Assembly (NCBI RefSeq): GCF_044324785.1
Contig: NZ_CP172127.1
From: Escherichia coli
GTDB lineage: Bacteria; Pseudomonadota; Gammaproteobacteria; Enterobacterales; Enterobacteriaceae
Length of the DNA stretch: 64,000 nt
Direction: 5' to 3' (one strand)
Shown: piece by piece, positions 41,706 to 41,771 of the stretch
Layout: every line of letters starts with the position of its first letter
How positions within the stretch are numbered: position 1 is the stretch's first letter
Position numbers and translations under genes: made by a program
Notes under the pieces: model-generated
Told to the model about the DNA's origin: nothing
Database searches by the model: none
Seen by the model: only the letters and a program-made list of their open reading frames with translations

Positions 41706-41729
41706 GCTGTCAGTTCGTAAGTCAGAAAG

Positions 41730-41756
41730 CCGCCGACATGTTCGGCGGTTTTTTTT
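41730..41756 (+). terminator. intrinsic terminator downstream of nuoN (also downstream of convergent yfbM)
   Basis: CCGCCGA-CATGT-TCGGCGG followed by eight T. Confidence 0.85.
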
Positions 41757-41771
41757 GGTGCCCTGACACCA

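Follow-up and report, generated by a model that had tools for sequence, protein, structure and literature searches.

The window analysed here, a stretch of 64,000 nucleotides of Escherichia coli DNA, carries the 3' end of the nuo operon facing the gene yfbM. The features of this junction, taken from the list of open reading frames (nuoN and yfbM), from the sequence itself (spacer), from sequence and folds (hairpin) and from BLAST breakpoints and printed junctions (filler), are as follows:

40248-41705, plus strand: nuoN, last gene of the nuo operon, 485 aa, TAA stop codon at 41703-41705
41706-41771, no strand: nuoN-yfbM spacer, 66 bp between convergent stop codons, the 'empty' allele of the yfbN/yfbO/yfbP indel
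41730-41756, plus strand: hairpin resembling an intrinsic terminator, CCGCCGA-CATGT-TCGGCGG followed by T8
41754-41770, no strand: junction filler, 17 bases without a K-12 counterpart
41772-42275, minus strand: yfbM, 167 aa, intact, stop codon at 41772-41774

NuoN of the window is identical to K-12 NuoN over 485 aa (tblastn), and YfbM, 97.6% identical to K-12 YfbM, matches Pfam PF08974 (DUF1877; E=4e-36) and the PDB entry 1RYL (E=1e-106). The 66-bp distance between the two genes, which had been read from the letters in a preliminary description of this DNA, was confirmed from the positions of the two stop codons.

The hairpin in the spacer begins 25 nt past the nuoN stop codon and consists of a 7-bp stem (41730-41736 paired with 41742-41748, CCGCCGA/TCGGCGG; 6 of the pairs are G-C), a 5-nt loop (CATGT, 41737-41741) and a run of eight T (41749-41756). 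Folding of a 76-nt region on the plus strand gave -28 kcal/mol (z = -5.0; 0 of 200 shuffled sequences were equally stable), and that of the hairpin on the minus strand -26 kcal/mol (z -2.2). With a GC-rich stem-loop and a U-run past the stop codon, it has the sequence features of a rho-independent terminator and may be regarded as the predicted terminator of nuoN. The T-run ends 15 nt before the yfbM stop codon, which agrees with the earlier remark that the terminator is followed almost immediately by that stop. The hairpin was not listed in a consensus terminator scan, probably because A-T and G-T pairs extend the stem into the T-run and leave too few T in the tail window; the empty result is a limitation of the scan, the hairpin being plain in both sequence and fold. 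Rfam 15 returned sub-threshold matches alone in and around the spacer (16-19 bits, with cut-offs of 34-80).

Bidirectional intrinsic terminators between convergent genes are composed of an A-tract, a GC hairpin and a U-tract. The spacer of the window resembles them in its one GC-rich hairpin with A8 and T8 on either side, in the convergence of nuoN and yfbM and in the conservation of its position across species: stem and position are kept in K-12, E. albertii, E. whittamii, E. fergusonii and a Superficieibacter-like contig. On the minus strand the hairpin has A8 upstream and the tail CUUUCUGACUU, reading A8-hairpin-CUUUCU, with T8 on the plus strand. It may therefore also stop yfbM transcripts, perhaps less well, as the tail in that direction is just CUUUCU; unlike in typical bidirectional terminators, termination of yfbM could thus be weak.

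In K-12 MG1655 the annotated order is yfbM, yfbN (b2273, on the opposite strand), yfbO (b2274), yfbP (b2275) and nuoN, as had been stated in the preliminary description, and yfbM and nuoN are 2,610 bp apart, compared with 66 bp in the window; the reference genome thus does not have the direct nuoN-yfbM adjacency that would have refuted the observation. Homology between the two sequences breaks at 41753|41754, five T into the run, and picks up again at 41771, immediately next to the yfbM stop codon, so that a K-12-only segment of 2,561 bp (NC_000913.3 2387439-2389999) stands opposite 17 window-only bases. The filler with its flanking bases reads, in the sense of yfbM, TGGTGTCAGGGCACC, followed by the A-run. 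YfbN, YfbO and YfbP were absent from the whole 64-kb window by tblastn (best E 0.13-1.8), which together with the BLAST junctions bears out the proposed lack of the three genes. The difference is a structural one and not a statistical signal, and a test against chance is inapplicable to it. It is a replacement rather than a clean insertion with a duplicated target.

A further gene was recognised on the K-12 side of the comparison. The 272-bp 'intergenic' stretch between yfbM and yfbN of K-12 corresponds to the 3' half, frameshifted, of a gene of 191 codons (hereafter orf191):

NC_000913.3 about 2387456-2387712 (K-12 locus 9457-9713): orf191 remnant, residues ~103-191 of a 191-aa SMI1/KNR4-like gene

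The gene is intact in some Escherichia, and the yfbM-yfbN region of K-12 is a pseudogene remnant.

The origin of the difference in a mobile element (an insertion sequence, an integrative islet or a phage remnant), either inserted in K-12 or excised here, was considered, the more so as the spacer is a target of insertion sequences in E. coli KKa019, E. albertii and E. coli FDAARGOS_1250. The K-12 cassette itself is annotated with yfbN, yfbO and yfbP only and has no transposase, integrase or recombinase gene; its ends bear neither inverted nor direct repeats, a repeat search having found short ones at chance level elsewhere in it, and no target site is duplicated. The two alleles differ by replacement (17 nt for 2,561 nt), and there were neither PADLOC matches nor plasmid copies. 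A mobile-element footprint is, on these grounds, very improbable.

The IS insertions in the spacer are separate events, found in the following places:

locus L031, about 1757-2470: IS insertion in the spacer
locus L016, 8505-9278: IS insertion in the spacer
locus L002, 7593-8950: IS insertion in the spacer

E. coli KKa019 has an IS200/IS605 element directly past the T-run of the terminator; E. albertii (type strain/TW07627-like) has the same element at the homologous point, and the flanks are specific to each species. ISEcB1 is inserted inside the hairpin loop of FDAARGOS_1250 with a CATG duplication, and a pair of ISEcB1 and IS1 is associated with the loss of yfbM through elaD. The 66-bp spacer is a repeated IS target that was hit independently. 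This parallels IS200/IS605 and IS3-family insertions at terminator hairpins, with the same 66-bp spacer hit in E. coli and in E. albertii; unlike these cases, which are secondary events in other strains, the spacer of the window is uninterrupted.

To place the two arrangements within the species, 5,426 complete E. coli genomes were surveyed. A 901-bp probe across the junction had some match in 5,423 genomes and matched over at least 80% of its length in one place in 4,301, and a 171-bp junction probe was found uninterrupted (≥80% coverage, 95-99% identity) in 4,213 of the 5,426 (78%), among them O157:H7, ATCC 25922 and other well-known strains; the best match to the junction of the window was CFSAN018748 (99.4-99.7%). 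DNA of the K-12 cassette had any match in 1,015 genomes (19%), a proportion that overstates its natural frequency because many carriers are laboratory derivatives of K-12; 946 genomes cover 80% or more of the cassette, and 985 of the 1,015 carriers have an identity of 99% or more. There is hardly any doubt that the window carries the common empty allele. The chance that the adjacency arose as an assembly or sequencing artefact in the window is practically nil, since the same uninterrupted junction was recovered in more than 4,200 independently completed genomes and both flanking genes are intact.

The alignment with K-12 and the survey across the species thus upheld the observation that had been made, with its emphasis corrected: K-12 is not the norm, and the arrangement of the window is the majority state in E. 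coli. The presence/absence polymorphism is real but routine and already known in kind, K-12 being the minority form. Comparisons of the backbones of K-12 and O157:H7 in 2001 reportedly described segments of this type as 'K-islands' and 'O-islands'. Like a K-island, the cassette is a short low-GC segment in K-12 that is absent from the same backbone position in most strains, including O157:H7, between collinear flanks. Unlike K-islands, it has no mobility genes or repeats, it is not specific to K-12 (variants of it occur in other E. coli and Escherichia species, and of yfbN in other genera) and a remnant is here more probable than an acquisition.

Besides the IS insertions, at least six states of content were seen at the site. 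E. coli UID2309220013 carries versions of yfbN and yfbO without yfbP, at 85% DNA identity to K-12, and approximately 24 E. coli genomes have cassette matches in the band of 80-90% identity. Contigs of the Escherichia sp. MOD1-EC7003 type have an intact orf191 adjoining yfbM, followed by yfbN and yfbO. Fourteen E. coli genomes have a version of orf191 shortened to 108 aa, and its 3' half alone remains in K-12 and in UID2309220013; yfbP is restricted to the K-12-type cassette. Between cassette alleles the DNA diverges by 12-15%, which exceeds the divergence of the flanking genes within E. coli. The preliminary description had called this junction a second variable point in the same neighbourhood as that between yfbL and elaD, and the variety of states and insertions, along with a deletion of 1,556 bp in yfbK of the window, supports this.

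At the yfbL-elaD junction the window has clearly the deleted form: at 43609-43628 those 1,556 bp of the K-12 gene (K-12 locus 6036-7591) are replaced by about 20 bp, which leaves approximately 13 C-terminal and 44 N-terminal codons of yfbK. In yfbL, the start ATG of K-12 reads ATA at 43347-43349, and the longest canonical reading frame is 272 aa (from GTG at 43196), compared with 323 aa in K-12; the 5' end of the gene and the sequence upstream (43221-43609) share 77-79% identity with K-12, compared with 93-98% elsewhere. The closest genome, CFSAN018748, keeps the ATG of yfbL and has an extra A in the A-run that follows. ElaD of the window is 88% identical to that of K-12; elaD is missing between rbn and yfbK in E. 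albertii, E. whittamii, MOD1-EC7003-type Escherichia and E. coli UID2309220013, and its place is taken in E. fergusonii and the Superficieibacter-like contig by a CheW/response-regulator (cheV-like) gene.

Outside E. coli, a scan of genome contigs with YfbM gave four loci and missed E. fergusonii, and other species were reached by look-ups of exact proteins; this sample comprises few genomes, from E. albertii, E. whittamii, E. fergusonii and other Escherichia, with one Superficieibacter-like and one Klebsiella-like contig. An empty spacer of 63 bp was present in seven of the eight places sampled in E. albertii, the eighth having an IS in the same spacer. The spacer is also empty in E. whittamii (68 bp) and in L008, a GTDB species representative (66 bp). 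The fillers of E. whittamii and L008 are two substitutions from that of the window, and the filler of E. albertii is related to it. On the nuoN side, 'ACCA(T) + A-run + hairpin' is common to empty and filled alleles and altered in K-12 alone, and 'CACCA + A-run' precedes the hairpin in filled alleles too; the A-run and hairpin would thus form one conserved terminator module. The 15-nt filler and the opening 20 nt of filled alleles both contain 'TGGT..GCAC', but this match was set aside as too short to show homology.

Filled sites in other species have yfbN-like genes in the same position, directly downstream of nuoN and co-directional with it:

locus L020, 8001-8717: yfbN-like gene after nuoN, E. 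fergusonii
locus L024, 8001-8726: yfbN-like gene after nuoN, Superficieibacter-like contig
locus L029, 7001-7738: yfbN-like gene after nuoN, Klebsiella-like contig

The order in E. fergusonii is nuoN-yfbN-orf191-yfbM, without yfbO or yfbP. YfbM of this species is 96-97% identical to that of K-12 and YfbN 71%, and the 191-aa protein shares 81% identity with that of the MOD1-EC7003 type; such uneven rates between neighbours suggest that the genes of the cassette are under relaxed or diversifying selection. In the Superficieibacter-like contig, whose NuoN sequence is identical to that of Superficieibacter sp. BNK-5, nuoN is followed by a YfbN-like gene (46% identity) and then by yfbL-yfbK. In the Klebsiella-like contig, whose NuoN and ElaA are identical to Klebsiella / K. 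aerogenes sequences, nuoN is separated from rbn by a single gene, which is YfbN-like. The YfbN-like proteins of these two contigs have 44-46% identity. That of Klebsiella is a singleton cluster in the database, which makes it rare in that genus and a candidate for acquisition. A further homologue, P0019 (39% identity), has an unrelated gene context and is uninformative on this locus.

The position of yfbN-like genes after nuoN in E. fergusonii and in the Superficieibacter-like and Klebsiella-like contigs implies a long presence of the cassette, or of yfbN at the least, in precisely this place. The presence/absence polymorphism that borders the nuo operon at its 3' end, and of which the window has the majority, empty form, is in our view likely to be an old one. 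As to its direction, which we infer from the distribution and decay of the cassette, we lean, on balance, towards a cluster that is ancestral at the site and an empty allele that arose by deletion. An ancestral cluster followed by loss is favoured because the copies are as diverged as their hosts or more, and because a series of decay stages is found. The ancestral cluster would have consisted of small, low-GC, fast-evolving genes, with orf191, yfbN and yfbO in its fullest forms and yfbP in addition in K-12. An illegitimate deletion would have produced the empty allele, with end points restricted by selection for an intact stop codon of yfbM and terminator of nuoN; what remains between nuoN and yfbM would be the terminator module of A-tract, hairpin and T-tract and a junction scar of 15-17 nt. 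Homologous recombination in the conserved flanks may then have spread the empty allele, or re-sorted it among lineages, while the version retained in K-12 would be one in partial decay, of whose 191-aa gene just the frameshifted remnant is left.

Several observations weigh against a deletion. E. albertii, E. whittamii, L008 and most E. coli (78%) are empty and share related junction sequence, and when lineages within Escherichia are simply counted, the balance is in favour of an older 'empty' state in this genus. The empty state could then be ancestral for E. coli, E. albertii and E. whittamii, and K-12 and a minority of strains would have gained the cassette by homologous recombination in the conserved nuoN and yfbM flanks, from another Escherichia lineage with the cassette at the same site. 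The near-clonality of the K-12-type cassette, described above, is as expected of a recent spread, and the divergence between cassette alleles, comparable to that between different species, is consistent with imports from different donors. The GC content of the cassette (39.8%) is below that of nuoN (57%), but the elaD-yfbM neighbourhood is itself low in GC (35-47%), and composition does not single the cassette out. Any donor, moreover, would itself have needed the cassette in this same position, which makes it old there in any case, and the decayed orf191 of K-12 fits either long residence or the import of a copy already decayed. We regard such a gain as rather unlikely, if conceivable. The flanking genes group by species, and yfbM of E. 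coli forms two haplogroups whose correspondence with the state of the site is incomplete. Since the phylogroup-A-like FDAARGOS_1250 is empty with K-12-like flanks, transitions in one direction or the other, or recombination, must have occurred among close relatives. Loss from an old cluster is the reading we retain for the window.

The genes missing from the window give few hints of function. The 191-aa product is named 'SMI1/KNR4 family protein' by NCBI; its Pfam matches are below the gathering scores (SUKH_5 16.1 bits, cut-off 27; SMI1_KNR4 15.8 bits, cut-off 25.4) and cover approximately 30 N-terminal residues only. SUKH (SMI1/KNR4) proteins are said, in work dating from 2011, to serve as immunity proteins in loci of polymorphic toxin systems. 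Like these loci, orf191 has a weak N-terminal SUKH motif and sits among small, fast-evolving and often decaying genes; unlike them, it has no adjoining toxin gene, and searches with YfbN, YfbO and YfbP gave no immunity or defence family. The structural model of YfbN is confident and all-helical (pLDDT 92). Its first ~75 modelled residues weakly resemble tandem UBA-like domains (TNK1, NAC and the N-terminus of EF-Ts; best Foldseek E 0.04), and the C-terminal two thirds had no Foldseek match among solved structures. YfbP has TPR-like repeats below the Pfam thresholds, and YfbO had no match in the libraries searched. Searches of orf191, YfbO, YfbN, YfbP, YfbM, YfbL and YfbK against PADLOC-DB v2 gave nothing at E ≤0.01, and NCBIfam gave nothing above threshold.

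Two preprints report phenotypes, which we treat as leads only. In one, from 2025, deletion of yfbO or yfbL in K-12 led to resistance to phage N4 and complementation restored sensitivity. In the other, an overexpression screen of 2020 for blockers of a retron toxin, yfbO was chosen, though below the significance cut-off, owing to its linkage to yfbN. It is a long shot that the lost cluster (the SMI1/KNR4-like gene, yfbN, yfbO and yfbP) is a fast-evolving conflict module that alters the outcome of phage infection. If it were, the narrow host range of N4 would be due in part to the lack of yfbO that is natural to about 80% of E. coli and to this strain among them, and the indel would be kept polymorphic by phage pressure and not by neutral decay.

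Taken by itself, the junction in the window has little weight, being one of many small differences in accessory genes. The genes yfbN, yfbO and yfbP of K-12 are dispensable in nature, and yfbN-like genes are old and rapidly evolving neighbours of nuoN in several enterobacterial genera. The main lesson is that, at the 3' end of the nuo operon, it is K-12 that has the unusual form.
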